Source of the DNA: a virus
DNA length: 64,000 nucleotides
Direction: 5' to 3' (one strand)
Virus record (IMG/VR): IMGVR_UViG_3300007790_000207
Position 1 is the stretch's first letter. Every line of letters starts with the position of its first letter. The notes beneath the pieces are model-generated. The model was not told where the DNA came from. It worked only from the letters and a program-made list of their open reading frames with translations, and searched no databases. Below are positions 26,236 to 42,699 of the stretch, one piece after another. A program made the translations under genes and the position numbers.

Positions 26236-26241
26236 GGGTCC

Positions 26242-26883: not shown

Positions 26884-26887
26884 ACCA

Positions 26888-26943
26888 CCCGGCCCGCTCA
26901 CCGACATCTCAGCGCAAGCGCATCGAGGCACCAGCGGGCCGGG
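26888..26943 (+). ncRNA. Solitary TIGR-like stem-loop guide unit 1
   Basis: 10-bp stem CCCGGCCCGC/GCGGGCCGGG; 36-nt loop tCA-ccgacatc-TCAGCgcaaGC-GCA-tcgaggca-CCA. Confidence 0.7.
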
Positions 26944-27008
26944 TATTGACCCTGAAGAAGAGAACGCCTAGACTGGCGTCAACAAGTTCACGCATCGGAA
27001 GGAACCCC

Positions 27009-28154
27009 GTGGCTATCACCATCGACACCATGAAGGAGCACAACACCTTCGTCCCGGTCGCCGTCGGCGAGAAGTTGCTCTCGCGCACCGAGCCCGTCGA
27101 GACGGTCAAGATCGACGAGGGCGCACAGGTGTCCTTCAAGGTCGCCGACGACTGGCTCGTCAAGGCCGGGCAGAGCGATCTCTCGCAGGTCGACGTCCAG
27201 GTCACGGTCGACGGCAAGGAGTACGCGCTGTCGAAGGCGGCCGCGTTCGGCGTCGGTCAGGTCTTCGGCATCCAGAACACCTACCTCCCGAAGATCACCG
27301 GCTCGATCTACGAGACCCTGCTCAACCACCACTACGGCGACCGCGGTAGCAAGGCCTTCGCGGCGCTCGCCATCGGCGACGTGCTCCACGGTCTCGTGCG
27401 CCCCGGCCTCTCGGTCTACTCGAACCTCCAGATCTTGGAGCAGACCATCGCGGGCATCGAGGCCGCCTACGGCAAGGACACGGAGGTCCTCGTCGACCGC
27501 CGCACGTTCAACACGCTCACGAAGACCGACATCCGGCTCGTGGTCCCGGAGGTCCAGCGCACGATCCACGACGGCGGTCTCCACGACGTCCCCTCGGGCG
27601 AGACCGACACCTGGAGCGCGGGCATCCACATCTCGAACTCGGTCACCGGCAAGAGCCCGACCACCCTCTCGGCGTACCTCTTCCGCTACTGGTGCGCGAA
27701 CGGCGCGACGGTCCGCAACGAGGACGTCGGCACCTGGCACCGCGCGTTCGACTCGACCGTCGACATCTACGAGTGGTCGAAGGCGAACACCGAGGAGATC
27801 CTCGCCGGGATGGAGAAGCAGTTCGACGCCGTCCAGCACCTCACCGGTGTCGACGTCGACGGCCGCGTCGGCTCGGTCATCAACGAGACCCTGCGGCCCA
27901 TGCGCGTGAGCGCGTCCATCCGCAACGACGTCGCCCAGGGCCTCCTCGACTACGACGACGTCTCGCTCTACACGGTGATGAACGCCATCACCTCCTACGC
28001 GAACCGGCCCGGTCTCGACCAGGACTACATCAACCGCTTCATGACGGCGGGCGGCAACCTCGCGTCGCGCTCCGTGACGAGCGAGAAGGCCACCATCTGG
28101 AAGGAGGGGCACCTCGCCCCGCCGACCGCTCCGAACCCCTACGAGGTGGTCTGA
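27009..28154 (+). CDS. DUF932-like protein
   Basis: GIHISNSVTGK...AYLFRYWCANGA motif; AAGGA RBS. Confidence 0.65.
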   Translation: MAITIDTMKEHNTFVPVAVGEKLLSRTEPVETVKIDEGAQVSFKVADDWLVKAGQSDLSQVDVQVTVDGKEYALSKAAAFGVGQVFGIQNTYLPKITGSIYETLLNHHYGDRGSKAFAALAIGDVLHGLVRPGLSVYSNLQILEQTIAGIEAAYGKDTEVLVDRRTFNTLTKTDIRLVVPEVQRTIHDGGLHDVPSGETDTWSAGIHISNSVTGKSPTTLSAYLFRYWCANGATVRNEDVGTWHRAFDSTVDIYEWSKANTEEILAGMEKQFDAVQHLTGVDVDGRVGSVINETLRPMRVSASIRNDVAQGLLDYDDVSLYTVMNAITSYANRPGLDQDYINRFMTAGGNLASRSVTSEKATIWKEGHLAPPTAPNPYEVV

Positions 28155-28156
28155 CG

Positions 28157-28594
28157 ATGACGACCATCGAGCCGGGCGCTCGCGTCCGCATCAAGCACGA
28201 CATCATGGGCGGCGGCCAGAAGACCGAGCCCTTCGTCTACCTCGCCAAGGGGACCGAGGGCATCGTCACCGAGATCCTGGACCCGGAGAGCCTGGGCGAG
28301 GACGAGTTCCCCCTCGGCATCCGGATCGGCTGGAACGAGGACTACGTCGCCTTGGACGACGTGGAGGTCGTCACCGCCGCCGCCGACGTGGCGAAGGAGC
28401 CGGTCGAGTTCACGATCACCGGCAAGGTCACCGTCGAGGTCACGCACCGCATCATGGCGATGAACCGCGACGAGGCCGCCAAGAAGTGGGCCGAGATGGG
28501 GTCGGACCTTCTGACCGACTGGGACGAGATGAGCAAGCCCGAGATCGCCCCTCTGGCCTACTTCGACATCGGCGAGAAGGGGGTCGACTACTGA
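28157..28594 (+). CDS. Hypothetical protein (SH3-like N-terminus)
   Basis: GAGGTGG RBS. Confidence 0.6.
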   Translation: MTTIEPGARVRIKHDIMGGGQKTEPFVYLAKGTEGIVTEILDPESLGEDEFPLGIRIGWNEDYVALDDVEVVTAAADVAKEPVEFTITGKVTVEVTHRIMAMNRDEAAKKWAEMGSDLLTDWDEMSKPEIAPLAYFDIGEKGVDY

Positions 28595-28701
28595 TGGAAC
28601 TCCTGTTCCTCCTCCTCCCCCTCCCCTGGGCGCTCTTCATCTGGGCGCGGGCGAGCGGTCACATCCTCACGCTCTCGGAGTACGAGGGGTTGGTGCGCTG
28701 A
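28594..28701 (+). CDS. Small membrane peptide
   Basis: TGATG coupling at both ends. Confidence 0.5.
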   Translation: MELLFLLLPLPWALFIWARASGHILTLSEYEGLVR

Positions 28702-29291
28702 TGGGGCTCGGCAAGCCGATGCTCTGGATGAGCATCGCCGCCACCGGCAACGGGGAGGACCCCAAGGCGTCCATCCCGACCGAGATCGCGGCGATCCTCA
28801 CCGACAGCGAGATGCGGCCGGTTGACGGCACCTACGACCGCATCATCATCACGCGCGAGCACGCGGCGGCGCTGAAGGCCGACAAGGAGGCCATGGTGGC
28901 GCTGAAGCGTGAGAACGCGGTCCACCCCAAGCACCCCGACGCCGTGACGATCCTGAACGCCGAGGCGAGCATCCTGGAGATGCTCGACGACGCGAAGGTC
29001 GACGTCCTGGTTCCCATCGCGGGCCGCGGCGCTGACCGCTTCCTCCTCCCGGTGGTCACGGAGCACATGCCGAACCTCCGGAAGCGGCTGGAGGGCTGGA
29101 CCTTCGACTCCTCGCAGTTGGCCCGCTGGGCCCGCGCCGCGAGCGGTCTGGGTGCCTTCCGCAAGCACGTCCCCGACCTGCGGGACTACGACCCTCTCTT
29201 CGAGGCGATGCCGCCGTACTCGCAGGCCACGTTCAAGGAGATCTTCACCGCGGCGCACCAGTTCCGCGCGATCCTGAAGGAGCACGAATGA
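28701..29291 (+). CDS. Hypothetical protein
   Basis: Coupled ORF, phage codon usage. Confidence 0.65.
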   Translation: MGLGKPMLWMSIAATGNGEDPKASIPTEIAAILTDSEMRPVDGTYDRIIITREHAAALKADKEAMVALKRENAVHPKHPDAVTILNAEASILEMLDDAKVDVLVPIAGRGADRFLLPVVTEHMPNLRKRLEGWTFDSSQLARWARAASGLGAFRKHVPDLRDYDPLFEAMPPYSQATFKEIFTAAHQFRAILKEHE

Positions 29292-29743
29292 CCGAGATCT
29301 GGCTCATCAAGAGCCGCCACCACGTCGAGGCCGCACTGGCCTCCGAGGAGGAGGCCCTGACCCTCCTCTACCGCATCCGAGCGTCCAACCCGGACGCGAC
29401 CGACTGGAAGGTCGAGAAGATGCCCGTCGTGGCCGGGGAGGTCCAGCCGATCATCCGGTTCACCATCCAGGCGCGCATCTCGGACTCCGAGGAGGTGTTC
29501 ATCGTCAACGAGCACCGCGAGCACGTCTGGCCGCTGAAGACGACGACGCACCCCGACATGGGCTGGATGTGGCAGAGGATCTACGACCCGCCCGAGGCCT
29601 TCGGGACGCTCACCGTCCGCGGCTTCGACGAGGAGAAGGTCAAGAAGGCCTTCCAGGAGATCTCCGAGGGCTTCCGGACCACGGAGGCCATGCGCGCGTC
29701 GGAGCGCACGGACTACCGGTGGCTCGGCTCGGCCGGGCACTAG
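29288..29743 (+). CDS. Hypothetical protein
   Basis: AAGGAG RBS, ATGA coupling. Confidence 0.65.
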   Translation: MTEIWLIKSRHHVEAALASEEEALTLLYRIRASNPDATDWKVEKMPVVAGEVQPIIRFTIQARISDSEEVFIVNEHREHVWPLKTTTHPDMGWMWQRIYDPPEAFGTLTVRGFDEEKVKKAFQEISEGFRTTEAMRASERTDYRWLGSAGH

Positions 29744-29774
29744 CATCAAGGGATGGCCCACCTCACGGGCCCAC

Positions 29775-29855
29775 GCTCCTCTGGTGGAATGGCAGACACG
29801 GCGCACTCAAAATGCGCTCCTGGAAGGGGTCCCGGTTCGAGTCCGGGGAGGAGCA
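29775..29855 (+). tRNA. tRNA-Leu(CAA)
   Basis: GCTCCTC/GAGGAGC acceptor stem, GCGCA-CTCAAAA-TGCGC anticodon arm, long variable arm, TTCGAGT T-loop. Confidence 0.9.
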
Positions 29856-29857
29856 CA

Positions 29858-29911
29858 AGACGGGCGCATGATACCCCCGAGCCGCGGCGCAAGAAGCGGG
29901 CTAGCCCGTCT
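29858..29911 (+). ncRNA. Solitary TIGR-like stem-loop guide unit 2
   Basis: Stem AGACGGGC/GCCCGTCT; 38-nt loop gCA-tgatacccc-CGAGCcgcgGC-GCA-agaagcggg-CTA. Confidence 0.65.
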
Positions 29912-29914
29912 GAC

Positions 29915-29943
29915 TTGACAAGGGTCGAGAGAGGCCCTACTCT
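29915..29943 (+). promoter_or_regulatory. Promoter for downstream tRNAs, with near-consensus operator
   Basis: TTGACA-17-TACTCT; TTGACAAGGGTCGA. Confidence 0.65.
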
Positions 29944-29971
29944 GAAGTTCTTCGGCTCCGGCTGAAGACCT

Positions 29972-30042
29972 TGACAGGTAGCCAAGAGGCAAGGCATCCG
30001 GCTGTTACCCGGCGAGCGGTGGTTCGATCCCACCCCTGTCAG
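29972..30042 (+). tRNA. tRNA-Asn(GTT)
   Basis: TGACAGG/CCTGTCA acceptor stem, CT-GTT-AC anticodon loop, GGTGG-TTCGATC-CCACC T arm. Confidence 0.8.
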
Positions 30043-30108
30043 CGCAATGTAGAGCGAGGCCCGGCGAGAACCGGAGGGCCACACAGGGTCGTGACCCACC
30101 ACGAACTT

Positions 30109-30181
30109 AGGTCCCTGGCGCAACTGGTAGCGCAACGGTCTCCAAAACCGTAGGTTGCAGGTTCGAATCCTGCGGGATCTG
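30109..30181 (+). tRNA. tRNA-Trp(CCA)
   Basis: AGGTCCC/GGGATCT acceptor stem, ACGGT-CTCCAAA-ACCGT, GCAGG-TTCGAAT-CCTGC. Confidence 0.9.
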
Positions 30182-30255
30182 CGGCGCGGCTCCGGCGCGC
30201 TGGCGCTTAGCGGTAGGAACCCGCCAAAGTCCCAAGTCCAGCAGACGGAGCACCT

Positions 30256-30341
30256 GGCAGATTACTTCAAGTGGTCAACGAGGGGTGGCTGTAAACCACC
30301 TGGCTTCGCCTTCGCAGGTTCGAATCCTGCATCTGCCGCCA
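30256..30341 (+). tRNA. tRNA-Tyr(GTA)
   Basis: GGCAGAT/ATCTGCC acceptor stem, GGTGG-CTGTAAA-CCACC, long variable arm, encoded CCA. Confidence 0.88.
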
Positions 30342-30418
30342 TCCGCTACACTGTCTGGGACGGTCACGACGTTAGCGTCCTCGTCCGAGGTCGCTCCTCC
30401 CCCTCCTAGGAGTACATC

Positions 30419-30646
30419 GTGGCACTCACCGTCACCGTCGACACGACCAAGAACCCCGCCGAGGCGACTGTCGTCTCCGACAGGCGCGAGGTCGTCTTCA
30501 CCGCGACGACCGCAGGCGAAACCGTCACCGCGACCGGCCGCTACCCCATCAAGATCACCGACGACTCGCGCACCTGGAAGCCGAAGACCGGCCCGGATGG
30601 CAAGCCCATCGACGACGGGAAGACCGCCGTCTTCGTGGTCGCATGA
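30419..30646 (+). CDS. Hypothetical protein
   Basis: AGGAG RBS. Confidence 0.6.
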   Translation: MALTVTVDTTKNPAEATVVSDRREVVFTATTAGETVTATGRYPIKITDDSRTWKPKTGPDGKPIDDGKTAVFVVA

Positions 30647-31944
30647 GCCGCCTGACGGTCTCCACGGCAGGCGAGACGGCCTCCGTGGACTACACCATCC
30701 CTACCGCAGGAGACGAGCCGGTCAAGCAGGTCTCCTACGCCAACCACACCGAACTCCGCGCCGGGATGAAGATCCCCGCCGACGCGAACCTCGTGACGTG
30801 GCCGCTCGGCGCGAAGTACCTCCACGAGGCGGCACGCACGCTCGGCGCGAACGACATCCTCGTCCTGCCGGAGCGCGACGAGCCGTACCTCATCGACCCG
30901 CGCGACGGCTTCCGCGCCGCGGGCATCGTCGAGGCTGAGTCGGTCATCGGAGACCCCTGGGCCGCGAGCCCGCAGGTCGTCCGCACGCCCATCCGGAACA
31001 CCTACTCGGACACCGGCAGGGCGGCGAATATGTGGTTCGCCATGGTGCGCGTCACGCGCGGCCTGGTCGGCATGGGCCCTCGCACGGTCATCCGGATCGC
31101 CGACCTCCCCTTCAGCCAGCCCGCGCAGAAGTCGCCGCCGCGCAACGTCACGAACCCGACGACGGAGCAACAGCGCCGAGCCTGGCGCACCGATGGCTCC
31201 GTGCAGGTCCTCTCCGGCGTGCAGGAGAAGTTGATCGAGTCCGACACCGCGAACTGCATCGTCGGGAACTTCCGGGCCGTCGGCCGCTCGCTGGGCGGCG
31301 TCGCGTTCACCGGCATCAAGTTGATGCAGGGCGGCGCGGTCCGCAAGGTCAACGCCCGCGGCTTCGGCTCCGGCTTCGCGGGCGTGCCGAACGGCGAGGC
31401 AGGGACCTTCTCGTTCGACCGTCGCGCCTACGAGGTCGAAGACGTCATCGTCGACGGCCGCGACGAGTCCGGCGAGATCATCATCGCCTCCCCGATCATG
31501 TGGAACAGCGTGCCGGGCGGCCGGATGCGCGACGTCACGACGATGTACTGCCGCGCGGGGATGCCCGCTCTGTGGGGCTCGCGTGGCGTCCACGACTGGG
31601 AGGACGTCCACTTCCTCCACCCGGCCGAGGTCGGCATGAACTCGGAGCGCAACTCCGCTGGGCTCACGCTGAACTGGACCCGAGGCACGATCTCGGCGGC
31701 CGCGGGGAAGTATCACCTCATCGTCAACTCCCTCGACGGCACGAGCCAGAAGATCACGCTCACCGACGTCGAGGCCAAGGGCGGCATGAGGGGCGACGGC
31801 GTCCTCACGAGCCACGGCTACAACTACGGCGGCGAGACGCAGGGCCAGAAGGCGGCGGACATCGTGCTCGTCCGCAACGGCGTCCGCTACCCCGCTCGGC
31901 GCGACGACACCGGCCCGAACCGGACCTGGGGAACCGTCTTCTGA
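30643..31944 (+). CDS. Putative right-handed beta-helix (pectate-lyase-like) protein
   Basis: Gly/Asn/Val-rich short repeating strands in the C-terminal half. Confidence 0.5.
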   Translation: MSRLTVSTAGETASVDYTIPTAGDEPVKQVSYANHTELRAGMKIPADANLVTWPLGAKYLHEAARTLGANDILVLPERDEPYLIDPRDGFRAAGIVEAESVIGDPWAASPQVVRTPIRNTYSDTGRAANMWFAMVRVTRGLVGMGPRTVIRIADLPFSQPAQKSPPRNVTNPTTEQQRRAWRTDGSVQVLSGVQEKLIESDTANCIVGNFRAVGRSLGGVAFTGIKLMQGGAVRKVNARGFGSGFAGVPNGEAGTFSFDRRAYEVEDVIVDGRDESGEIIIASPIMWNSVPGGRMRDVTTMYCRAGMPALWGSRGVHDWEDVHFLHPAEVGMNSERNSAGLTLNWTRGTISAAAGKYHLIVNSLDGTSQKITLTDVEAKGGMRGDGVLTSHGYNYGGETQGQKAADIVLVRNGVRYPARRDDTGPNRTWGTVF

Positions 31945-31960
31945 CCTGTCACCACACTTC

Positions 31961-32007
31961 GAAGGCCCTCCGGCCCGAGCCTCAGGCTCACCAGTCGGAG
32001 GGCCTTC
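31961..32007 (+). terminator. Terminator-like hairpin
   Basis: GAAGGCCCTCCG / CGGAGGGCCTTC. Confidence 0.6.
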
Positions 32008-32013
32008 TCCGTG

Positions 32014-32041
32014 TTGACGAGCGTCAACCTTGTGGTACGCT
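32014..32041 (+). promoter_or_regulatory. Promoter with TTGAC-N4-GTCAA operator (leaderless)
   Basis: TTGACGAGCGTCAA; TACGCT 32036-32041; ATG 32048. Confidence 0.75.
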
Positions 32042-32047
32042 CGATTC

Positions 32048-32194
32048 ATGAGCATCTACGACATCCCCGAGGAGCGCCGGGTCGACCCCGCTTCCTGCAC
32101 GCACTCCTCCTTCGTCCTGAAGTACGACGGCGGGAAGTGGCCGCACGTCTGTGAGGACTGCGACACCATCATCGGCTGGGGCTTCGTCGGATGA
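32048..32194 (+). CDS. Small Cys/His protein
   Basis: C.H...CEDC; ATGA coupling. Confidence 0.5.
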   Translation: MSIYDIPEERRVDPASCTHSSFVLKYDGGKWPHVCEDCDTIIGWGFVG

Positions 32195-32472
32195 CGAACC
32201 CGCCCCGCCGGTGCCAGATCACCGACTGCCCCAACCCCCACGTCGCCAAGGACTACTGCGCGCTCCACTACTCGCGAGCGCACCGCGGCGTCGACCCGAG
32301 CGGCCCCGTCCGTCCCTACGCGACGAAGCACGCCCCGACGTGCGACGAGGCGGGGTGCGACAAGCCGTACTACGCCAAGGACAAGTGCTCTGCGCACTAC
32401 ACCGCCATGCGGCGCGACGCCGCGCAGGCTTCCCCGCCGTCGACCACGACGATCCAGCCCTCGGGCGCATGA
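32191..32472 (+). CDS. Tandem zinc-finger protein (2x C-x4-C...C-x2-HY)
   Basis: CQITDC...YCALHY and CDEAGC...KCSAHY. Confidence 0.7.
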   Translation: MTNPPRRCQITDCPNPHVAKDYCALHYSRAHRGVDPSGPVRPYATKHAPTCDEAGCDKPYYAKDKCSAHYTAMRRDAAQASPPSTTTIQPSGA

Positions 32473-32500
32473 TGCCTACCACGGCGGGGAACTTTTTCTC

Positions 32501-32529
32501 TTGACGGCTGACAAGCAGAGAGGTAGCCT
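32501..32529 (+). promoter_or_regulatory. Promoter of the Tas-like operon (near-consensus operator, leaderless)
   Basis: TTGACGGCTGACAA; TAGCCT 32524-32529; ATG 32536. Confidence 0.7.
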
Positions 32530-32535
32530 CAGAGC

Positions 32536-32799
32536 ATGAAGACCATCCGCCAGCGGGTCAAGGAGGCCGTCCAGGAGCACCCTGACGCCTCCGCGCTCCA
32601 CCTCGCTCGCCGCTTGCGGGAAGAGGGTGGCCTGAGCGATGCAGACCTGCTCATGCTCCTCGACACTGCGATCACCGCCGAGCGTGAGAGCGCGAAGCCG
32701 AAGGTCACCGTCACTGTCAACCTCCCCGCGGACCGACCGCGCCGCGAGCCCCGCGCTCAGCGCATCGTCGACCGCGGCCCGTACCCCTGGCCTGCGTAG
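32536..32799 (+). CDS. Small helical protein, possibly HTH
   Basis: First gene of the operon carrying the Nop-domain gene. Confidence 0.6.
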   Translation: MKTIRQRVKEAVQEHPDASALHLARRLREEGGLSDADLLMLLDTAITAERESAKPKVTVTVNLPADRPRREPRAQRIVDRGPYPWPA

Positions 32800-32845
32800 A
32801 GTTACCACCAGCCGCCCGGCTCAAACAGACGACCAGCAGACCAGG
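32786..32845 (+). ncRNA. TIGR-like stem-loop guide unit 3, immediately upstream of the Nop-domain gene
   Basis: Stem CCTGGCCTGC/GCAGACCAGG (1 mismatch); 40-nt loop gTA-gagttacca-CCAGCcgcccgGC-TCA-aacagacga-CCA. Confidence 0.7.
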
Positions 32846-32867
32846 CCCCAACCCGAAGGAGAACCCT

Positions 32868-33653
32868 ATGAGGATCATCGACAGCCCCGTCCTCGCCATG
32901 ACCGCGAAGTCCCTCGACGACGTCGAGGACCTGCGGATCGCCGCCGAGAACCGGCTCCGAGCGCTCACCCGCGACGAGGCCGACAAGGACGGCGAGATCC
33001 GCGGACTCGGGCTCAGCCCCGAGCACCCGGACGTCAAGACCGCGACCGCCATCCTGGCGAACATCCAGGAGTTGGAGGTTCGGCAGACGAAGGCCCTGGA
33101 GTCGCAGATGAAGAGCCACCCGCTCTTCAATTGGGTCAAGGACTCGAAGGGCGTCGGCGCGAAGCAGGGCGCTCGCCTCCTCGCGGCTGTCGGCGACCCC
33201 TACATCGCCGAGCGGGTGAACAAGACGCCCGACGGCAAGATCATCAGCGTCGACGTCAGCCCGCGCACCCTCCGCGAGTTCCACTCGTACTGCGGCTACG
33301 GCATCGCCGACGACGGCCAGGCACGCCGCCGCAAGAAGGGCGAGCGCGCGAACTGGAACGCCGAGGCGAAGATGCGCGTCTACCTCATCGCGAACTCCAT
33401 CATCAAGACCAAGGGCGACCTTCGCGACGTCTACGACGCCGCGCGCGCCAAGTACGACCAGCAGGTCCACCTCACCGACTGCGTGCGCTGTGGGCCCTCT
33501 GGGAAGCCTGCGCTGGCCGGTTCCACGCTCTCGGCCGGGCACGCCCACGCTCGCGCCCTCCGCGCGGTCTCGAAGCGAGTCCTCTCGGACCTCTACTACG
33601 AGGCCAAGCGCATCCACGACGAGATGGACGCGACCGAGGCGGTGGCGGCATGA
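32868..33653 (+). CDS. IS110/Nop-domain RNA-binding protein without nuclease domain (TasA-like)
   Basis: DLRIAAENRL coiled coil, KGVGAKQGARLLAAVGDP (Transposase_20/Nop HhH), HSYCGYG...RRRKKGERANWNAEAK, HAHARALR; no N-terminal DEDD RuvC domain. Confidence 0.8.
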   Translation: MRIIDSPVLAMTAKSLDDVEDLRIAAENRLRALTRDEADKDGEIRGLGLSPEHPDVKTATAILANIQELEVRQTKALESQMKSHPLFNWVKDSKGVGAKQGARLLAAVGDPYIAERVNKTPDGKIISVDVSPRTLREFHSYCGYGIADDGQARRRKKGERANWNAEAKMRVYLIANSIIKTKGDLRDVYDAARAKYDQQVHLTDCVRCGPSGKPALAGSTLSAGHAHARALRAVSKRVLSDLYYEAKRIHDEMDATEAVAA

Positions 33654-33835
33654 GGGTCGAGATCCGCATCCAGGACGACGACCTGAACATCGAGGTCTCC
33701 GACGAGACTGAGGCGGTTCGAGACATGGCTCTGAGCCAGGTCCTCGCCGAGTGGTGGGACAACGGCACCCCGACCGAACTGATCGAGAAGACGGTGGCGC
33801 GCGCCATCGCCGCATACAAGGAGCAGAGCGCATGA
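33650..33835 (+). CDS. Hypothetical protein
   Basis: ATGA coupling to the Nop-domain gene. Confidence 0.6.
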   Translation: MRVEIRIQDDDLNIEVSDETEAVRDMALSQVLAEWWDNGTPTELIEKTVARAIAAYKEQSA

Positions 33836-34185
33836 GCGAGGTCATCATCAAGAAGCACCTCCGCTTCCCGATCCGCACGAAGGACCACCGGGAGCGCCAG
33901 AACTTCCTCGCGGCTGTGAAGGACGTCCTCGACGCCGGGGACGAGACCTTCAGCCGCAAGACGGTGGAGGTGCTCATGGGCGAGTTGACGCTCGCGCAGG
34001 AGTTCTACGACAAGGCGATGGCTCAGGACCGCTGGGTGCAGTTGCCGCCCGAGGAGACCCGTAGACTGGCGAAGTTCCTGGAGCGCCCCAACAGGTCCTT
34101 CGGGGGTCAGCCGCGCCTCTCTGTCAACGCCGTCGAAGGTGGCGGCCTCCTCATCCGAATCGCACCTTGGAGGTACGAGCAATGA
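33832..34185 (+). CDS. Hypothetical protein
   Basis: AAGGAG RBS, ATGA coupling. Confidence 0.6.
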   Translation: MSEVIIKKHLRFPIRTKDHRERQNFLAAVKDVLDAGDETFSRKTVEVLMGELTLAQEFYDKAMAQDRWVQLPPEETRRLAKFLERPNRSFGGQPRLSVNAVEGGGLLIRIAPWRYEQ

Positions 34186-35328: not shown

Positions 35329-35329
35329 A

Positions 35330-35551
35330 ATGACGGCCATGACGGTCGTCCACTTCATCCGCCCTGGCGGTCTCCCCTCGGTCTTCAAGATGAGCGACTA
35401 CGTCGCCGTCGAGGACACAGCCTGCGTCGTGGGAGGCCGCCAGCGGCAGGTCTCCATGAAGTCGGAGGCCACGCACGATCCGACGCTCGTGACGTGCAAG
35501 TTGTGCGTCGACGAGATCGAGAAGCAGGCCGAGATCCTCGCAGGGCCGTAG
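35330..35551 (+). CDS. Small Cys-containing protein
   Basis: C...CKLC. Confidence 0.5.
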   Translation: MTAMTVVHFIRPGGLPSVFKMSDYVAVEDTACVVGGRQRQVSMKSEATHDPTLVTCKLCVDEIEKQAEILAGP

Positions 35552-35572
35552 AGGATTTTATTCCCCAACCTC

Positions 35573-35602
35573 TTGACAGCCGTCAAGGCCGGTGTGTAGA
35601 GT
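35573..35602 (+). promoter_or_regulatory. Promoter with TTGAC-N4-GTCAA operator
   Basis: TTGACAGCCGTCAA; TAGAGT 35597-35602. Confidence 0.8.
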
Positions 35603-35632
35603 CGAGGCATACCCCGACCCAAGGAGCACACC

Positions 35633-36235
35633 ATGACCCTCGACCTCTTCGGACTCACCCCGACCCAGGTGCAAGGCCTCCGCGACAACCTGAGCCGCAC
35701 CCTCCTCAGCGGCCTCCAGAAGAAGCACACCGTCCCGGCCGTGCGTGAGGTCCGGAAGATGCTGATCGACCTCCACGAGGACCACTGGGGCACGCTCCTG
35801 AACTGCATGGTGCGCGAGGGCGTCATCCCGTGGGTCGACGAGCACTTCGAGAAGAAGCCGAACACCTCCCCGGAGACCATCAAGGTCCGCGCCGACACCG
35901 TGACCACCTCGGACTTCCTCTTCCTCTTCGGCAAGGCGCGGAAGGTCACCTCCGTCGACAGCGACAGCGACGTGGGGTACACCTACCTCTACGTCGAGAA
36001 TCCCGACGACCCCACCGACGAGATCGGCGTCTACTACACGAACCGCGAGGAAGTCCGCATCGTGCCGACGCCGAAGGAGTACCCCAAGGGCACGGTCGTC
36101 GTCTTCAAGGACCGCCCGACGGAGCCGGTCACCCGGTTCGAGGTCATCTGGAACAGCGGTCACACCGACGCCCAGGTCCAGGCCGCCGTCCGCGAGGGCA
36201 AGGCCACCATCCTCTACACCCCGAAGGAGTCCTGA
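35633..36235 (+). CDS. Hypothetical protein
   Basis: AAGGAG RBS. Confidence 0.65.
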   Translation: MTLDLFGLTPTQVQGLRDNLSRTLLSGLQKKHTVPAVREVRKMLIDLHEDHWGTLLNCMVREGVIPWVDEHFEKKPNTSPETIKVRADTVTTSDFLFLFGKARKVTSVDSDSDVGYTYLYVENPDDPTDEIGVYYTNREEVRIVPTPKEYPKGTVVVFKDRPTEPVTRFEVIWNSGHTDAQVQAAVREGKATILYTPKES

Positions 36236-36237
36236 CC

Positions 36238-36633
36238 ATGAAGGTCGACGCCATCCTGACCCAGGTCCACCTCTTGAAGCGAGGAGACCAGATCCAGATC
36301 TTCGGCGACTACCGCGAGGTCCTCACCTCTGAGCAGAGCCTCGTCGCTGACGACCTGTGGTATCTGTCTGTCGCCGACCCGCAACACCAGATCCCCTTCC
36401 AGGCCCACGTCATGAAGACCACGCTCTTCCGCACCAGGCCGAGGCCGTCGCGGACGTACCCTGAGGGCACCCTCGTCCGCGAAAACGCCGGAGCCTACCT
36501 GCTCCGCACTCGGACCAAGGACCTCTGGATCTACCCCAGCCGTGCCGCGTCGATGCGGACCGACGCGACGGTCGCCCACGCAATCGAGTGCGGCGCGCTC
36601 ACCCTCGTCCACGAGCCCGAGACGGAGGGCTGA
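36238..36633 (+). CDS. Hypothetical protein
   Basis: AAGGAG RBS; shares the Y.EGT.V motif with the previous gene. Confidence 0.6.
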   Translation: MKVDAILTQVHLLKRGDQIQIFGDYREVLTSEQSLVADDLWYLSVADPQHQIPFQAHVMKTTLFRTRPRPSRTYPEGTLVRENAGAYLLRTRTKDLWIYPSRAASMRTDATVAHAIECGALTLVHEPETEG

Positions 36634-36635
36634 GC

Positions 36636-36890
36636 ATGTCCGGCATCATCTTCGGCGTCGAGCACGTCGACCCTGTCAGCGGAGAGCGCGCCTTCATGGC
36701 CGACTTCGACTGGGACCTCGGGGAGGCCACGGTCATCGCCGATCACTACGAGGGCCGCGTCGTCGTGGCTCCCCGCGGGCCCTGGCAGTACGTCCCGCAG
36801 GAGGCCGTCGAGCAGGCCCGTGAGGCGACCAAGCAGGCCACCATGGACTCCGAGATCCGGAACATGCTGGAGGGGAAGGAGAACCCGTGA
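36636..36890 (+). CDS. Hypothetical protein
   Basis: GGAGG RBS. Confidence 0.6.
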   Translation: MSGIIFGVEHVDPVSGERAFMADFDWDLGEATVIADHYEGRVVVAPRGPWQYVPQEAVEQAREATKQATMDSEIRNMLEGKENP

Positions 36891-37099
36891 GCATCATCGA
36901 CGAGGTCGCCGCCGAGCGGCAGAAGCAGATCGAGAAGGGCTACGACGCCGCGCACGACGACGAGCACGGCTGGATGCACGTCCGCTACATCGCTCGTCTC
37001 AACCTCGACTGGACCACCGATGAGCGTGAGTCGATGGTCAAGGCCGCCGCGTCGCTCGTCGCGGCCGTCGAGGCCTTCGACCGGGAGCAGAGCCGGTGA
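36887..37099 (+). CDS. Conserved small phage protein (ER.KQI.KGYD..HDD.H type)
   Basis: Motif common in phage accessory genes. Confidence 0.65.
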   Translation: MSIIDEVAAERQKQIEKGYDAAHDDEHGWMHVRYIARLNLDWTTDERESMVKAAASLVAAVEAFDREQSR

Positions 37100-37368
37100 A
37101 CCGCTTCATCGTAGGCGTCCGGGAGTTCCTCCACAAGGAGGCCGCTGGCACCTGTCTCATCCTCGCCGCGGGCCTCCTCTCGCCCGCCCTCGGGCTGATG
37201 CCGGAGCGGTACTCGCCGGAGTACTGGGGTTGGCTCGTCGGCGTCGTCCTCCTCTCCCGCATCCCGCGCATCTTCATCGACCGGCTGGACTCCATCCAAT
37301 GGCACCTGGAGGTGGTCCGCGCCAAGCAGGACCTCCAGGACCTCGCCCGCCGCAAGCCCAACCCCTAG
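37096..37368 (+). CDS. Membrane protein
   Basis: Two TM segments. Confidence 0.55.
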   Translation: MNRFIVGVREFLHKEAAGTCLILAAGLLSPALGLMPERYSPEYWGWLVGVVLLSRIPRIFIDRLDSIQWHLEVVRAKQDLQDLARRKPNP

Positions 37369-37371
37369 ACC

Positions 37372-37428
37372 CCTGGCCCGCGCACTCAACCTCCAGCGCA
37401 AGCGCATCGAGCGGAACAGCGGGCCAGG
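37372..37428 (+). ncRNA. Solitary TIGR-like stem-loop guide unit 4
   Basis: Stem CCTGGCCCGC/GCGGGCCAGG; 37-nt loop gCA-ctcaacct-CCAGCgcaaGC-GCA-tcgagcgga-ACA. Confidence 0.72.
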
Positions 37429-37449
37429 ACAACTTTTCCAGGAGACCTC

Positions 37450-37641
37450 ATGGACAACAAGATCGACATCCCGAGCCACAACCGAGCCATCCGCCAGGCG
37501 CAGACCCTCTTGCGCCGTCGGACCGAGTCCTTCTCCAAGGACGAGCCGCAGAAGGGCTACTACGAGGAGAGCCGCGAGTCTCGCGCCTGGAAGAAGGCGG
37601 CCGACGCGCTGAACGACCTCCTCTACCCGGAGGTGGGCTGA
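37450..37641 (+). CDS. Hypothetical protein
   Basis: AGGAG RBS. Confidence 0.55.
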   Translation: MDNKIDIPSHNRAIRQAQTLLRRRTESFSKDEPQKGYYEESRESRAWKKAADALNDLLYPEVG

Positions 37642-37835
37642 TGTTCACCTCGATGATGGGTCTGGAGACTCCTGAGGAGCGGCAGTACCGCAAGGCCCAG
37701 GAGCGGCTCGACCGCCTGAAGGCCCGTCGCTCGATGCTCGACGTCAAGATCGAGGCCGCCGAGCGCACGCTCAACTTCTACCTCCCCTGGGTCCAGATCC
37801 AGGAGAGGCTCCGCGAGCAGGGCCGGATCAAGTGA
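37641..37835 (+). CDS. Small coiled-coil protein
   Basis: TGATG coupling. Confidence 0.55.
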   Translation: MFTSMMGLETPEERQYRKAQERLDRLKARRSMLDVKIEAAERTLNFYLPWVQIQERLREQGRIK

Positions 37836-38281
37836 GCCGCGGCTACTTCGCCATCGGCGTCTACCAGCCGAAGATCCCCGACAACATCGGGACGCTCATG
37901 CGCGCCGCGTACCTCTACGGTGCGGCCTACGTCTTCACCATCGGCAAGAGGTACGAGCGCCAGGCGACGGACACCCCGAACACGGCCAAGCACACGCCGC
38001 TCTTCCACTACGAGGACTTCTCGGACTTCCTCCACCACCGGCCGGACAACGCCCAGATCGTCGGCGTCGAACTCGACCACCGGAGCGTCTCCGTGGAGAA
38101 CTTTTCTCACCCGGAGCGAGCCATCTACCTGCTCGGTGCGGAGGACTACGGCCTCCGGGAGCGTCAGCGCCACCACTGCGACCACCTCATCCAGATCCCG
38201 ACCGTCAAGCCGCAGTCGATGAACGTCTCGGCGGCTGGCTCGATTGCCCTTTACAGCCGTCACGTCCAGATGGTACGTTGA
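37832..38281 (+). CDS. SpoU/TrmH-family RNA 2'-O-methyltransferase
   Basis: PKIPDNIGTLMRAA, LLGAEDYGL, SMNVSAAGSIALY SPOUT motifs. Confidence 0.9.
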   Translation: MSRGYFAIGVYQPKIPDNIGTLMRAAYLYGAAYVFTIGKRYERQATDTPNTAKHTPLFHYEDFSDFLHHRPDNAQIVGVELDHRSVSVENFSHPERAIYLLGAEDYGLRERQRHHCDHLIQIPTVKPQSMNVSAAGSIALYSRHVQMVR

Positions 38282-38291
38282 CACTCGTCAA
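38278..38291. promoter_or_regulatory. TTGAC-N4-GTCAA operator upstream of rtcB
   Basis: TTGACACTCGTCAA overlapping the SpoU stop codon. Confidence 0.7.
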
Positions 38292-38308
38292 CTGAAGGAG
38301 ACCCCACC

Positions 38309-39478
38309 ATGAAGAACCGCCCCGCGACCCGCCTCTACAACTGGGCGTCCATCCTCGACGAGGAGACCCTCGCCCAGGCGAAGCGCACCTCCGAGATGCC
38401 CTTCATCCACCCGCACATGGCTCTCATGCCTGACGCGCACCTCGGCAAGGGCGCGACGGTCGGCTCGGCCATCCCGACGCTCGGAGCCATCATGCCCGCG
38501 GCCGTCGGCGTCGACATCGGATGCGGCATGATCGCCGTCCGGACGAACCTCACGCTCGCCGACCTCCCCGAGGACCGCAAGCCGGTCCGCGAGGCCATCG
38601 AGGCCGCCATCCCGACCTCGGCAGGCAAGTACAACGTCGACCTCACCGAGACGGCCAAGCGCCGCGTCGAGGACCTCGCGATCCTCTCGGCTCAGTACGA
38701 CTTCAACCCGGCCGCCTACGCACCCAACTGGGCTCTCCAGTTGGGGACGCTGGGCTCTGGCAACCACTTCATCGAGATCTCGCTCGACGAGGAGGACCGC
38801 GTCTGGCTCTTCCTCCACTCCGGCTCGCGCGGCATCGGCAACAAGATCGCCCAGCACCACATCAAGGTCGCGCAGGAGTACTGTGCGCGACACTGGATCA
38901 TGCTTCCGGACCTGGACCTCTCCTACCTCGTCGAGGGGACGCCGGAGTTCGACCGCTACATCGCCGAGTTGCAGTGGGCGCAGGAGTTCGCGCTCCTCAA
39001 CCGCGAGGAGATGATGGACCGCGTCGTCGCGGCCGTCGAGGCGTGGGGTCCCGGCAAGTTCGAGGAGGTGGAGCGCATCAACTGCCACCACAACTACACC
39101 GAGCGCGAGCGCCACGGCGGCAAGGACGTCTGGATGTCCCGCAAGGGTGCCATCGACGCGAGCAAGGGCGTCATGGGCCTCATCCCCGGCTCCATGGGGA
39201 CGCGCTCCTACGTCGTGGAGGGGCTCGGCAACGCGCTCGCGCTCAACACCGCGCCGCACGGCGCTGGCCGCGAGTACAGCCGCTCGGCCGCCCGCAAGAC
39301 CTTCACGCACGAGCAGTTGCGCGAGGCCATGCAGGGCATCGAGTACCGCGACACCGACGCCTTCATCGACGAGATCCCGCAGGCCTACAAGGACATCGAC
39401 GTCGTCATGGAGGACGCCTCCGACCTCGTCGAGATCCGCCACACGCTCCGCCAGATCGTCAACGTGAAGGGAGACTGA
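38309..39478 (+). CDS. rtcB: RtcB RNA-splicing ligase
   Basis: MPDAHLGKG, VGVDIGCG, LGTLGSGNHFIE, HSGSRG, CHHN, PHGAGR, DEIPQAYKDI. Confidence 0.95.
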   Translation: MKNRPATRLYNWASILDEETLAQAKRTSEMPFIHPHMALMPDAHLGKGATVGSAIPTLGAIMPAAVGVDIGCGMIAVRTNLTLADLPEDRKPVREAIEAAIPTSAGKYNVDLTETAKRRVEDLAILSAQYDFNPAAYAPNWALQLGTLGSGNHFIEISLDEEDRVWLFLHSGSRGIGNKIAQHHIKVAQEYCARHWIMLPDLDLSYLVEGTPEFDRYIAELQWAQEFALLNREEMMDRVVAAVEAWGPGKFEEVERINCHHNYTERERHGGKDVWMSRKGAIDASKGVMGLIPGSMGTRSYVVEGLGNALALNTAPHGAGREYSRSAARKTFTHEQLREAMQGIEYRDTDAFIDEIPQAYKDIDVVMEDASDLVEIRHTLRQIVNVKGD

Positions 39479-39479
39479 G

Positions 39480-39737
39480 ATGCCCTCGGACGACGTCCTG
39501 AAGAAGGGAGCCGAAGCCCCGCTCCTGCCCTGGAACGAGGAAAAGCCCGGCTCGTGGTCGGGCGACCAGGATCGGCTCGCGGTCATCGAGAACCTCTCCA
39601 CGGTCCTCGTCGGCATGAGTGTGTCGGCACAGGAGGGCCTGGAGCGCCTCTCTCCGCTCGTCGTGCGGGACCTCGCCGAGGTCATCCGCATCGCGGCGCA
39701 GGACACGCGCCAGCAGAACAACGCCGGAGGTGCCTGA
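39480..39737 (+). CDS. Hypothetical protein
   Basis: Operon ORF. Confidence 0.55.
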   Translation: MPSDDVLKKGAEAPLLPWNEEKPGSWSGDQDRLAVIENLSTVLVGMSVSAQEGLERLSPLVVRDLAEVIRIAAQDTRQQNNAGGA

Positions 39738-39946
39738 TGTCCGAGGCCTACGTCGGCGACAGCCGGATCTACCTGTCTCCCAAGCGCACGGAGATCATGA
39801 AGCGCCAGGCCGCAGGCCGCATCGTGCGCGTGGGGGAGAGCACGAACCGCAACCTCACCGAGTTCTTCTTCAGCATCCCCGTCACCACTCTCCCGCGCCG
39901 CCGCGTCGTGCGGCCGGGGACCACCCGCTACAAGGCCTGGAGGTAG
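39737..39946 (+). CDS. Small basic protein
   Basis: GGAGG RBS, TGATG coupling. Confidence 0.55.
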   Translation: MSEAYVGDSRIYLSPKRTEIMKRQAAGRIVRVGESTNRNLTEFFFSIPVTTLPRRRVVRPGTTRYKAWR

Positions 39947-39949
39947 GTC

Positions 39950-40207
39950 ATGAACTTCGAGGCTCACTGCATCGGCGGCCCGCTCGCCGGGAACGTCTAC
40001 GCCATGCCGCCGGAGGGTGTCAAGGGCGAGCCTGCGCTCGGCATCCGGATCGAGTCCGCGTCGACCCTGCGGCCGGAGAAGGCCGCCGACGACACGCCCA
40101 TCCCCATCAAGCAGGGGGTGTACGCTCGCGACAAGAAGCCCTTCAAGAAGGGTGCCTACGAGTACGTCTGGCAGGGCTGGAAGCCTCTGACGGAGGAGGA
40201 AGCATGA
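39950..40207 (+). CDS. Hypothetical protein (IGGPLAG motif)
   Basis: GGAGG RBS. Confidence 0.6.
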   Translation: MNFEAHCIGGPLAGNVYAMPPEGVKGEPALGIRIESASTLRPEKAADDTPIPIKQGVYARDKKPFKKGAYEYVWQGWKPLTEEEA

Positions 40208-40707
40208 GCGGCCGCGAACTCGACCCGGACGGCACGGACTCCTACCACCCCGAGCACCCCTGGGAGCAGGTCGGACACCCGCTCTACATCCCGGAGCCGC
40301 GCCGGACGAAGTCGAACTGGCCGCCGCTCTCGGACGCGCGCCCGGCTGGACAGTGGGAGGCCAACTCGTGGGCCCGGATGCCGGACGGGCCCCTGCCGCG
40401 AATGCACTGGGAGGAGGGCTCGGGCATCGGGATCGGCAGGAAGCCGACGGTCCCGGACGGCTCGGTCGAACTCCACGGCCTCTACATCCCTTGGGCGAAG
40501 TACGCCGAGGTGGCTGGCGACCTCGCCATCGCCGAGTCGGTCCGCGAGCAGGAGCGCCGTCGCGTGGAGCGCATCGTCGAGATCGCATCGCAGATCATCA
40601 TCCAGGCGGACATCTCCAACGACGTGAAGTACGGCACGCTCTCGGCGGGCCCGATCAAGGAGCGGATGCAGGAGATCGTCCGGCTCGCACACCCCGAAGG
40701 AGCATGA
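40204..40707 (+). CDS. Hypothetical protein
   Basis: GGAGGA RBS, ATGA coupling. Confidence 0.6.
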   Translation: MSGRELDPDGTDSYHPEHPWEQVGHPLYIPEPRRTKSNWPPLSDARPAGQWEANSWARMPDGPLPRMHWEEGSGIGIGRKPTVPDGSVELHGLYIPWAKYAEVAGDLAIAESVREQERRRVERIVEIASQIIIQADISNDVKYGTLSAGPIKERMQEIVRLAHPEGA

Positions 40708-40997
40708 CCATGAAGCCTTACAACGGCCCCTACCCGCTCAACGCCATCCAGGCCCGCGAGGTCGCTGACCTCCTCAGCGCGCTCGACGAGACCTTCCCCT
40801 GGGAAGACCCGGACGACCACGGCCTGAAGTTCGGTGAGGGGAACCACATCGCCTTCCAGCCCATCGCCGTCACGACGGACGCGCTCGGCACCACGCCTGA
40901 GGTCCTCGGCTGGATCGTGATGCAGGACTTCGGCGTGCGGTTCACGCAGGAGGACCCGTACCCGAAGGCCGCGCCTCCGCGGGCGGTCGACCTGTGA
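40704..40997 (+). CDS. Hypothetical protein
   Basis: AAGGAG RBS. Confidence 0.6.
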   Translation: MTMKPYNGPYPLNAIQAREVADLLSALDETFPWEDPDDHGLKFGEGNHIAFQPIAVTTDALGTTPEVLGWIVMQDFGVRFTQEDPYPKAAPPRAVDL

Positions 40998-41467
40998 GCA
41001 TGGACATGCCGGTCCTGCCCTACGGCGGGACCGAGGGCCACTCCGGCACCGACACGTCGCGCGAGCGCGCTGAGCGAGAGGCGCTGAGCGCATCCGAGCG
41101 CCAGCAGACCGTCCTCGACCTCGCGGCGCAGTGGCGGGAGGACGGCGTCACCGTCGACGAGGTCCGCAAGGGCGGCATCCCGCACCACGGCTCCGCGAGC
41201 GCGACGCTGAGCGTCCTGCACCAGGGCGGGAGTCTCGTGCGGCTCGTCGAGAAGCGCGGCGGATGCAAGGTCTACGTCCTGCCCGAGCACGTCGCTGGGC
41301 GGCCGTTCGAGAAGTTCGTCGGCAACCGCGAGAAGGCGCAGATCGAGGCGCTGGAGGAGGCGAGTGAGACCATCAGAATCCTCCTGCGAAAGATCCCGCG
41401 CGCATCGTATGGGCTCAACCTCGCCTACAAGGTGCTCCAGCGGCAGATCGCCAAGATTCGGGGTTGA
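40994..41467 (+). CDS. Putative winged-helix DNA-binding protein
   Basis: TSRERA...HHGSASATLSVLHQGG..VRL, winged-HTH-like. Confidence 0.5.
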   Translation: MSMDMPVLPYGGTEGHSGTDTSRERAEREALSASERQQTVLDLAAQWREDGVTVDEVRKGGIPHHGSASATLSVLHQGGSLVRLVEKRGGCKVYVLPEHVAGRPFEKFVGNREKAQIEALEEASETIRILLRKIPRASYGLNLAYKVLQRQIAKIRG

Positions 41468-41493
41468 CGCTCGTCAAGTACCTGTGCTAATCT
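41464..41493 (+). promoter_or_regulatory. Promoter with TTGAC-N4-GTCAA operator
   Basis: TTGACGCTCGTCAA; TAATCT 41488-41493. Confidence 0.8.
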
Positions 41494-41527
41494 TTAGGTA
41501 CTGAGACCCCGACCCTAAGGAGCAACC

Positions 41528-42628
41528 ATGTGGATCTTCACCTCCGGCGGCGCGCTGATGCCGTCCCTCGCCCCGCTCGACAAGGCTGACGAGCAGTACA
41601 CGCTCGGCTACCGCGACTTCCAGGTCCGCGCCCGCGTGCGCTCGCACCTGGAGAACTTCATCCGCGACTACATGGAGCCGATGGGTCTCGACTACTCGGA
41701 GATCGAGACGACCGACAGCATGGACTACGACTGCCGGTTCTACACCACGCAGTCGGCGTTCGCCATGGCGATGAGCCTGGCGATCCACGACATCGACTAC
41801 AAGACCTTCAAGGACACCTCGGAGCGCCGCGACCGCAAGGGCCGCCTGCTCTACGCCGACGGCAAGGCCTACCACGACGTCCTCTACCGGGTCTGGGCCG
41901 TCATGGCGTCGCTCGGCAACCCCTACGGCCGGAACTTCCGCTACAGCACCTCCAGCCGGAGCGCGTCCAGCCTCTTCGACTACGACGCCGACGAGGTCGG
42001 CACGCACTCGCGCTTCCCGGCGGCGAAGGGCAAGAAGGGCAAGCGCGGCAAGGGCTCGCGCCGTCACGGCTCCTCGGAGCCCACCTTCTCGGGGCGGTGC
42101 ACCGAGGCGGGCGGCTACGTCCCCACGTCGTTCGGCGAGGCCAAGCACGAGAGCAAGCGCACGCCGCCCACGGCCGCGTCGCTGGCCGCCGCGGGCATCG
42201 CCGACCCCCAAGGCGTCGTCGACCGTTGGCACGAGCAGGAGGAGTCCGAGGCCGAGTTCCTCCGCCAGCAGGAGATCGAGGCCGACATGAGCGACGACGA
42301 GCGCGAGGACATCGCCATCGCCGCCGAGGAGGCCGCCATGGCGCTCATCGAGCACGACAGCGCGGTCGAGGACTCGCACTACGAGCCCGACCAGTTGTTC
42401 GCCATCGCCCGGTTCCTGCCGGTCGAGAAGTGGGACTCGTTCTTCTCGGTCGACGAGGTGGAGTACCTCGAAGTCCAGGCCAAGACCTGGGTCATGGGTC
42501 AGCAGAAGGCGCTGGAGAGCGCCGACAACGGCACGGGGGAGATCCCGGAGCCGGTGCTGACCATGGACCAGATCAAGGCCGCCATCGTCGAGGTCTCCAT
42601 CGCCCGCGCTGAGGCCAAGAGCAAGTAG
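41528..42628 (+). CDS. Hypothetical protein (MWIFT...VRAR N-terminal family, acidic C-terminus)
   Basis: AAGGAG RBS. Confidence 0.7.
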   Translation: MWIFTSGGALMPSLAPLDKADEQYTLGYRDFQVRARVRSHLENFIRDYMEPMGLDYSEIETTDSMDYDCRFYTTQSAFAMAMSLAIHDIDYKTFKDTSERRDRKGRLLYADGKAYHDVLYRVWAVMASLGNPYGRNFRYSTSSRSASSLFDYDADEVGTHSRFPAAKGKKGKRGKGSRRHGSSEPTFSGRCTEAGGYVPTSFGEAKHESKRTPPTAASLAAAGIADPQGVVDRWHEQEESEAEFLRQQEIEADMSDDEREDIAIAAEEAAMALIEHDSAVEDSHYEPDQLFAIARFLPVEKWDSFFSVDEVEYLEVQAKTWVMGQQKALESADNGTGEIPEPVLTMDQIKAAIVEVSIARAEAKSK

Positions 42629-42631
42629 ACC

Positions 42632-42699
42632 CGAAGCGGGTCCGCCACAAGAACACTCCGGCCGCAAGGCGCATTTCGGGGCTAGGCGGACCCGCTTCG
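42632..42699 (+). ncRNA. Solitary TIGR-like stem-loop guide unit 5
   Basis: 15-bp stem CGAAGCGGGTCCGCC/GGCGGACCCGCTTCG; 38-nt loop aCA-agaacact-CCGGCcgcaagGC-GCA-tttcgggg-CTA. Confidence 0.7.

Follow-up and report, generated by a model that had tools for sequence, protein, structure and literature searches.

We analysed a 64,000-nucleotide stretch of viral DNA (IMG/VR virus record IMGVR_UViG_3300007790_000207; hereafter the window), which is a piece of a soil phage genome with 67% GC and with genes running nearly all in one direction. No close match to the window was found among deposited phages; the helicase encoded in it shares 54% identity with its counterpart in Microbacterium phage Magritte. 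Four solitary hairpins on the plus strand were studied as candidate guide genes of TIGR-Tas, an RNA-guided DNA-binding system with two-spacer guides that was first described in 2025 (Faure et al. 2025, PMC12045711). The first of these hairpins, or units (26887-26944), begins 3 nucleotides (nt) after the TAG stop codon of a gene for a 225-amino-acid metallophosphoesterase and ends 1 nt before a promoter at 26946. The second (29858-29911) stands 1 nt after a tRNA-Leu(CAA) gene on the same strand (29775-29856) and 3 nt before a promoter at 29915. The third (37372-37428) begins 3 nt after the TAG stop of a gene for 90 amino acids; what follows it is not a promoter but a ribosome site and then an ATG at 37450. 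The fourth (42632-42699) begins 3 nt after the TAG stop of a gene for 366 amino acids and has a T-rich tail and then a promoter at 42710. All four stems are perfect Watson-Crick helices, with 12 base pairs (bp) and a loop of 34 nt at 26887, 8 bp and 38 nt at 29858, 10 bp and 37 nt at 37372, and 15 bp and 38 nt at 42632. The initial annotation had placed the four single units at these positions, three of them after a stop codon in the context TAGACC, one behind tRNA-Leu and three with a promoter within about 10 bp, and all of this was found in the sequence. Its loop length of 36-38 nt held for three units; the loop of unit 26887 reaches 36 nt only with the closing T-A pair opened.

The TAGACC motifs are located at 26881, 37366 and 42626, and in each case the TAG terminates, in frame, an open reading frame (ORF) with high GC at third codon positions (26206-26883, 37096-37368 and 41528-42628). 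The plus strand of the 64 kb holds four copies of TAGACC, three of them this context before solitary units, and the minus strand holds 12. An array unit at 51250 is preceded by CAGACCA. The TAGACC flank is not conserved in the related contig L025 described below. TAGACC may be a conserved 5' flank of the units. The flank of unit 42632 can also pair with the unit's own 5' stem strand (GACCCG/CGGGTC; 42627-42643). The small hairpin that would form in this alternative way was flagged as terminator-like on the minus strand. On the 3' side, promoters of the TTGAC type begin 2, 3 and 10 nt beyond units 26887, 29858 and 42632, respectively. The promoter-like site after the first unit (26946-26974, plus strand) consists of TTGACC, 17 nt and TAGACT, and this region is conserved in L025. 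Promoter-like sites whose -35 box lies inside the palindrome TTGAC-N4-GTCAA were seen at 8458, 19373, 26206, 32014, 35573, 41464, 42710, 44521, 46131, 48230, 51386 and 62359, and this promoter type is also present in the relatives L025 and L026. The tRNA-Leu gene belongs to a cluster of four tRNA genes (29775-30341), and genes for a SpoU-family RNA methylase (37832-38281) and an RtcB RNA ligase (38309-39478) lie between units 37372 and 42632.

The window contains a family of 13 such units, all on the plus strand. The solitary ones are members of it and share their architecture with two arrays, as was expected when they were first called guide-like. An array of three (51181-51377) consists of units 51181-51241, 51250-51305 and 51312-51377 and is located between a stop codon and the promoter at 51386. 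An array of four (53473-53736) consists of units 53473-53531, 53539-53593, 53602-53662 and 53670-53736. Two more single units flank a small gene before tasA, the gene of the Tas protein (32868-33653, plus strand), and the arrays lie 18-20 kb downstream of it. Unit 32430 (32430-32491) overlaps the 3' end of ORF 32191-32472 and has a T run and a promoter (at 32501) behind it. In unit 32786 (32786-32845) the stem is imperfect; the unit overlaps ORF 32536-32799 at its stop codon, and 22 nt separate the end of the unit from the tasA start downstream. As both small ORFs end inside these units, guide units here also overlap coding sequence; the two stop codons fall in the spacer regions. A hairpin scan of the window showed that the loop lengths of perfect stems of at least 9 bp cluster at 34-41 nt. 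Unit 32786 came from a relaxed-stem scan with much noise. A further sequence, CTGAAGAACTT, has 18 copies in the window at up to one mismatch against 0.36 expected (46475, 51161, 53269, 53463, 53743 and others). Exact copies of it bracket both unit arrays and contain a stop codon and CTT.

The units were compared with those of L025, a metagenomic contig of 55.7 kb that encodes a TasA with 68% identity and carries eight units in 20 kb. Since the stems and spacers share no sequence, the 21 units were aligned structurally by hand, and each piece was verified as an exact substring. A single plan was common to all of them: outer stem, NCA, spacer, CYA, mini hairpin, NCA, spacer, CCA and stem. It reads alike around both helices, so that the unit RNA is pseudo-symmetric. 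Unit 26887 is parsed as TCA, 8-nt spacer, TCA, GCGCAAGC, GCA, 8-nt spacer and CCA, and unit 29858 as GCA, 9-nt spacer, CGA, GCCGCGGC, GCA, 9-nt spacer and CTA. The innermost eight pairs of the outer stem were paired in 167 of 168 cells, with two to four pair types at each position, and partners slid by 1-3 nt as a control paired in only 38-43% of cells. The mini hairpin between the spacers is 7-11 nt long and closed by G-C pairs. Spacers are 7-11 nt long with a mode of 9 nt (8+8, 9+9, 8+9 and 8+8 in the four solitary units), and all 42 are distinct. The 5' motif was GCA, ACA or TCA at both positions in 18 of the 21 units, and the 3' motif was CCA or CTA at the inner position in 16 and at the outer position in 19.

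This architecture is specific to the family and to the strand. On a five-point score of the loop grammar, the 12 units with perfect stems reached 4-5 on the plus strand, the solitary four among them, and 1 on the minus strand. The other window hairpins with a comparable stem and loop (n = 112) scored 3 or less. In the 133-kb control phage Magritte, which is not among the 91 phage records matching TasA, none of 348 hairpins scored 4 or more. We also built a covariance model from the array unit 53602 alone and searched both strands of the window with it. Its best matches other than itself were the solitary units 26887 (E-value 0.006) and 37372 (E-value 0.13); a model built from a single unit was too noisy to gather all units, and it was used on the window only. 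Compared with shuffled sequence, 11 of 12 units folded better (z -2.5 to -5.9), and unit 29858 folded no better (z = -0.4).

The product of 32868-33653 is 261 amino acids long, belongs to PHROG 4285 and was recognised by sequence and fold as a coiled coil with a Nop domain. Against sequences of the PDB it matched TasR (9mty_A, E-value 5e-10) and TasH (E-value 0.0055). Its AlphaFold model had a pLDDT of 95, and Foldseek ranked TasR 9MTY first (E-value 3e-9, TM-score 0.65), followed by TasH entries and then by IS621/ISCro4. No Pfam match and no RuvC or HNH nuclease domain was found in it. By sequence comparison and predicted fold the protein is thus a nuclease-less Tas (TasA), in agreement with its first description as a Nop protein. 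An identical TasA sequence is also present on a 113-kb contig of a protein collection and on a 36.6-kb Logan contig; our unit searches in the source phage covered the 64-kb window.

In published stem-loop units the stems vary but are consistently palindromic, and the intervening sequence is variable; the protein that binds them is TasA, which has a Nop domain and no nuclease (Faure et al., PMC12045711). Only a few stem nucleotides, beside the boxes, are conserved in them, the loop between the spacers is usually 9-10 nt and can form a hairpin, and CUU at the stem base is a processing mark (Xu et al. 2026, bioRxiv 10.64898/2026.09.09.750476). In our units CTT, which is a common trinucleotide, was found no farther than 5 nt from the stem base at 32430, at 37372 on the 3' side, at 42632 within the 3' strand, at 51181 and 53473 and in several L025 units, and it was absent near the stem base at 26887. 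The CTT-containing sequence CTGAAGAACTT may be linked to this published processing motif. Because the shared architecture occurs in the same genome as a Tas protein, we take the units to be genes for stem-loop tigRNAs and not chance terminators, and the four hairpins are probably single-copy tigRNA genes of the phage's own nuclease-less TIGR-Tas system.

The scattered positions are conserved in L025. Its eight units, six of them single, share the variant grammar (3+9+3+10+3+9+3) with those of the window. One L025 unit lies 2 nt after tRNA-Leu(CAA) and is followed by the same kind of promoter, at a position matching unit 29858. Another (4715-4776) has the same stem as 26887, lies before the homologue of a gene for 381 amino acids and has a conserved downstream promoter, and a third lies directly after the homologue of the gene for 366 amino acids, matching 42632. 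L025 also has a unit before tasA. At each matching position the spacers of the two phages are entirely different, and the neighbouring proteins are only 38-70% identical. The proposal that the phage scatters guides through its genome was thus borne out by a relative that does likewise. Their description as elements of the 3' untranslated region was too narrow: one L025 unit is found in a 5' leader just after a promoter, and another (8220-8273) is placed between tRNA-Asn and tRNA-Tyr, at distances of 3 and 5 nt from them, which is a natural tRNA-guide-tRNA arrangement. A placement between genes on the transcribed strand fits better.

Units 26887 and 37372 form a paralogous pair, both with the GGCCCGC stem and an identical 18-nt core and with differing spacers. 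The initial annotation had recognised a pair with this stem but had named the first and fourth units; it is the first and third, and unit 42632 has a different stem and core. When the exact 18-nt core was searched in viral contigs, all 17 matches lay in coding sequence without flanking stems. The stem core CCGGCCCGC is common to five units at different loci of the two phages, and unit 37372 with its 3' flank resembles the unit and leader upstream of tasA in L025. This recurrence and resemblance indicate that units spread by duplication and then change their spacers, as had been suggested.

Strong scattering has so far been found only in the source phage and L025. In the relatives L045 and L046 units are located mainly just upstream of tasA. 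In L026, whose TasA is 65% identical, no recognisable unit was found up to 1.1 kb upstream or 10 kb downstream of tasA (L026 1-11910), and its guides may be far away or it may be arrayless. Since relatives at 57-65% identity have units mostly beside tasA, or none in the stretch covered, strong scattering appears to be a trait of a sub-lineage. Cluster A mycobacteriophages also encode a TasA homologue (48% identical), which is annotated as a transposase, a helix-turn-helix protein or a hypothetical protein and lies beside a Cas4 exonuclease. In one of them, Gompeii16 (NC_031111; L022 6994-7302), five tandem hairpins with loops of 31-38 nt lie in the 340-nt gap upstream of the TasA homologue and look like a stem-loop TIGR array.

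Several points weigh against the assignment of the four hairpins to TIGR-Tas. The scoring grammar was written after inspection of all units, so that the separation of the solitary four by it was not blind; the model built from an array unit and the units of L025 therefore serve as the independent checks. The published stem-loop box sets are CCA/CGA/CTA/CAA and TG/CG, unlike the boxes here, which are RCA on the 5' side and CCA-G on the 3' side. The locus layout also departs from the published one: units have been described on either side of tas or within it (Xu et al., bioRxiv 10.64898/2026.09.09.750476), whereas 4-10 kb separate the solitary four from tasA. Searches for targets also gave no support. 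With a target geometry derived from the published 8-nt 3' overhang and C-5 rule, the window, L025, Magritte and three other loci were searched for spacer A joined to the reverse complement of spacer B with gaps of 0-6 bp, and no match surpassed those of three wrong geometries. An exact-match scan of 185,579 genomes for unit 29858 gave 16 scattered matches in unrelated bacteria, which is chance level, and viral contigs gave no exact match for this unit.

We regard this layout, with single units away from tasA and the arrays farther downstream, as a point of difference and not as a ground to reject kinship with TIGR-Tas. The box variant can be tied to the canonical form, because more distant TasA relatives carry canonical units beside tasA: in L028, L027 and L023 the array units are built as CCA, 9 nt, CG, 4 nt, CCA, 9 nt and CG right beside the gene. 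The first Gompeii16 unit apparently follows the same CCA, 9 nt, CG plan when inspected by eye. Boxes of this kind were found in relatives at 35-56% TasA identity.

The initial annotation had further suggested that the same hairpin could end a transcript and release a guide. Such a dual-purpose element, whose outer hairpin ends transcription or protects the 3' end of the upstream messenger RNA (mRNA) before the same RNA is released as a guide, is conceivable but rather unlikely. In its favour, a unit stands directly before five of about 17 plus-strand promoters of the TTGAC type, and the tails of units 42632 and 32430 are rich in T. Units also begin 3 nt after a stop codon, and in L025 a T-rich tract and a promoter come after unit 16488. 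At units 37372 and 32786 and at the L025 units 9917 and 17737, however, a ribosome site and a start codon lie about 20 nt downstream and there is no promoter. The hairpin is unlikely to be an efficient terminator at these four places, because the ribosome site of the next gene follows and tasA itself would be cut off. Loops of 34-41 nt also fall outside the geometry of intrinsic terminators, and a terminator scan called none of the solitary four as a whole, whereas ordinary short-loop terminators exist elsewhere in the phage, for example at 31961-32007 and 55520-55555. Termination was thus unsupported as a general rule for the units: the loops of the solitary four are 34-38 nt, read-through is needed at 37372 and 32786, and only 42632 of the four has a T-rich tail. 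Partial pausing or protection of 3' ends at the units close to promoters is possible.

Less probable still is that the solitary units are orphaned relics, which left an array by duplication and still fold, and which TasA no longer uses. The units lie far from tasA, and 26887 and 37372 are recent duplicates including their TAGACC flank, as relics might be. The solitary units nevertheless match the array units in grammar score, and intact units have been kept after tRNA-Leu, before the gene for 381 amino acids and after the gene for 366 amino acids despite protein identities of 38-70%.

There is very little chance that the hairpins are ordinary terminators, or mRNA-stabilising or processing hairpins like the RNase III sites of phage T7 and repetitive extragenic palindromic (REP) elements, with loops that are guide-like by accident. 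They do lie between genes on the transcribed strand with GC-rich stems, and a guide role gained no support from the target searches. Four conserved flanking motifs and a central mini hairpin are nonetheless present in all units on one strand only, while all stems and spacers differ; none were found in the control phage without TasA. A Tas protein is encoded in the same genome, and relatives of this TasA carry the published unit grammar.

Guides for RNA instead of DNA, for example for a box C/D-like 2'-O-methylation with the phage SpoU-family methylase, are the least probable reading and can be nearly dismissed, for although the Nop domain is a hallmark of box C/D ribonucleoproteins and SpoU methylase and RtcB genes are present in the same region, the TasA proteins in published work are DNA-binding repressors of transcription (bioRxiv 10.64898/2026.09.09.750476) and TasR is inactive on RNA substrates (PMC12045711).

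Other RNA classes were also considered for the units. A Y RNA with a Ro protein was rejected, as no TROVE protein is encoded in the window. An H/ACA-like pocket was rejected by eye on the lack of a conserved ACA after the lower stems, and a tRNA-like fragment was likewise rejected by eye for its size, since the stem strands of the units are about 38 nt apart and those of a tRNA about 59. For Rfam box C/D small RNAs, no unit had an Rfam match even at E-values up to 10, and no RUGAUGA/CUGA kink-turn (K-turn) boxes were present. As a separate observation, two Magritte hairpins in terminator positions, 21376-21430 (L001) and 129253-129311 (L003 29253-29311), have different stems and a near-identical 31-nt loop. 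The shared loop contains AGUA...GAA around a GCAA-capped mini helix; it looks like a sarcin-ricin motif and is not TIGR-like.

Taking the units as tigRNA genes, we infer the following course for their transcription, processing, loading and targets. The outer variable helix and the small inner helix would together display two spacers, both about 9 nt long, with an RCA similar to box C on the 5' side and a CCA-G similar to box D on the 3' side of each. The units would have no promoter of their own and would be made within the upstream transcript, which may be a gene 3' end, a tRNA precursor or a leader. To judge from the sequence they are transcribed as part of the upstream RNA, since they start 1-3 nt after a tRNA or stop codon, two of them overlap gene ends, and promoters follow and do not precede them. 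Host RNases would then cut the units out of the transcript. A tRNA-flanked unit could be freed by the enzymes that process tRNA 3' and 5' ends, and 3' processing of tRNA-Leu(CAA) would create the 5' end of unit 29858. TasA is a published RNA-guided transcriptional repressor that binds DNA (Xu et al., bioRxiv 10.64898/2026.09.09.750476). By analogy with that work, a TasA dimer would load the unit, and the loaded protein would bind double-stranded DNA reading spacer A and the reverse complement of spacer B and so block transcription.

The units are a real and well-supported example of a known system in an undescribed layout, with single, scattered and partly tRNA-flanked guide genes that have variant boxes and are conserved in two phages. 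Scattered single guides, guides flanked by tRNAs and the RCA/CCA-G variant are not described in the published TIGR-Tas work cited here, and guides are currently sought as arrays beside tas with fixed box motifs. It is possible, and we propose it tentatively, that guide genes left the array and became passengers. The tigRNA would then be made with a host operon or tRNA cluster and freed by the end-processing enzymes of the cell without a dedicated promoter or nuclease, TasA would receive guides ordered in time during infection, and 'arrayless' Tas proteins may use scattered guides that are missed by searches of the tas neighbourhood for canonical CCA/YG boxes. If TasA loads solitary units, the TIGR guide repertoires of phages are under-counted, the 'arrayless' Tas proteins have a concrete and testable answer, and guide production may depend on host RNA-processing enzymes and on the timing of phage operons. 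The tRNA-guide-tRNA arrangement is also a compact natural design for guide expression.

The units can be compared with several known systems. With intrinsic terminators and T7-type RNase III hairpins they share GC-rich stems and an intergenic position at gene ends, and differ in their 34-41-nt loops with strand-specific conserved motifs; a T tract is mostly absent, and a gene of the same operon comes next after several of the units. The bridge RNAs of IS110 elements (IS621, ISCro4) have a partner with a homologous C-terminal protein domain and an RNA internal loop with left and right guide strands between two helices. Unlike in those elements, the phage protein has no RuvC and no catalytic serine domain context, each RNA has one loop and not two, and there are no transposon ends. 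Archaeal and eukaryotic box C/D guide genes are dispersed and often co-transcribed with their neighbours, and in plants tRNA-small nucleolar RNA dicistrons are cut by RNase Z. Our units resemble box C/D guide RNAs in their terminal helix, two guides, Nop-domain partner and scattered single genes without an own promoter, and a release by tRNA enzymes is plausible. They differ in having no K-turn boxes and no Rfam C/D match, in the expected target being DNA, and in that no L7Ae or fibrillarin partner was seen.

Within TIGR-Tas, the dual-repeat systems with TasR or TasH (TaTasR 9MTY, SpTasH) share with the phage system a homologous Nop domain, a two-spacer guide and a pseudo-two-fold symmetry of the RNA. 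In dual-repeat TIGR the units have a fixed length of 36 nt and contain edge and loop repeats, the arrays are long and regular, and the proteins have nuclease domains, whereas the units described here have variable stems and no repeats and their protein has no nuclease. Stem-loop TIGR-TasA (PlTasA, BlTasA, MbTasA; PMC12045711; bioRxiv 10.64898/2026.09.09.750476; Guan et al. 2026, bioRxiv 10.64898/2026.08.11.744272) has arrays at or inside tas, in contrast to the four single units found here 4-10 kb away behind unrelated genes or a tRNA. The RCA/CCA-G boxes and the G-C-closed hairpin of 8-10 nt as inner loop also set the phage units apart. In both, the Nop-only effector carries a coiled coil and the stem of the unit is palindromic and variable. 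Short conserved motifs frame each of the two spacers of 8-12 nt, which are separated by a short loop or a secondary hairpin, and a few stem pairs close to the boxes are conserved. Units may overlap coding sequence in both.

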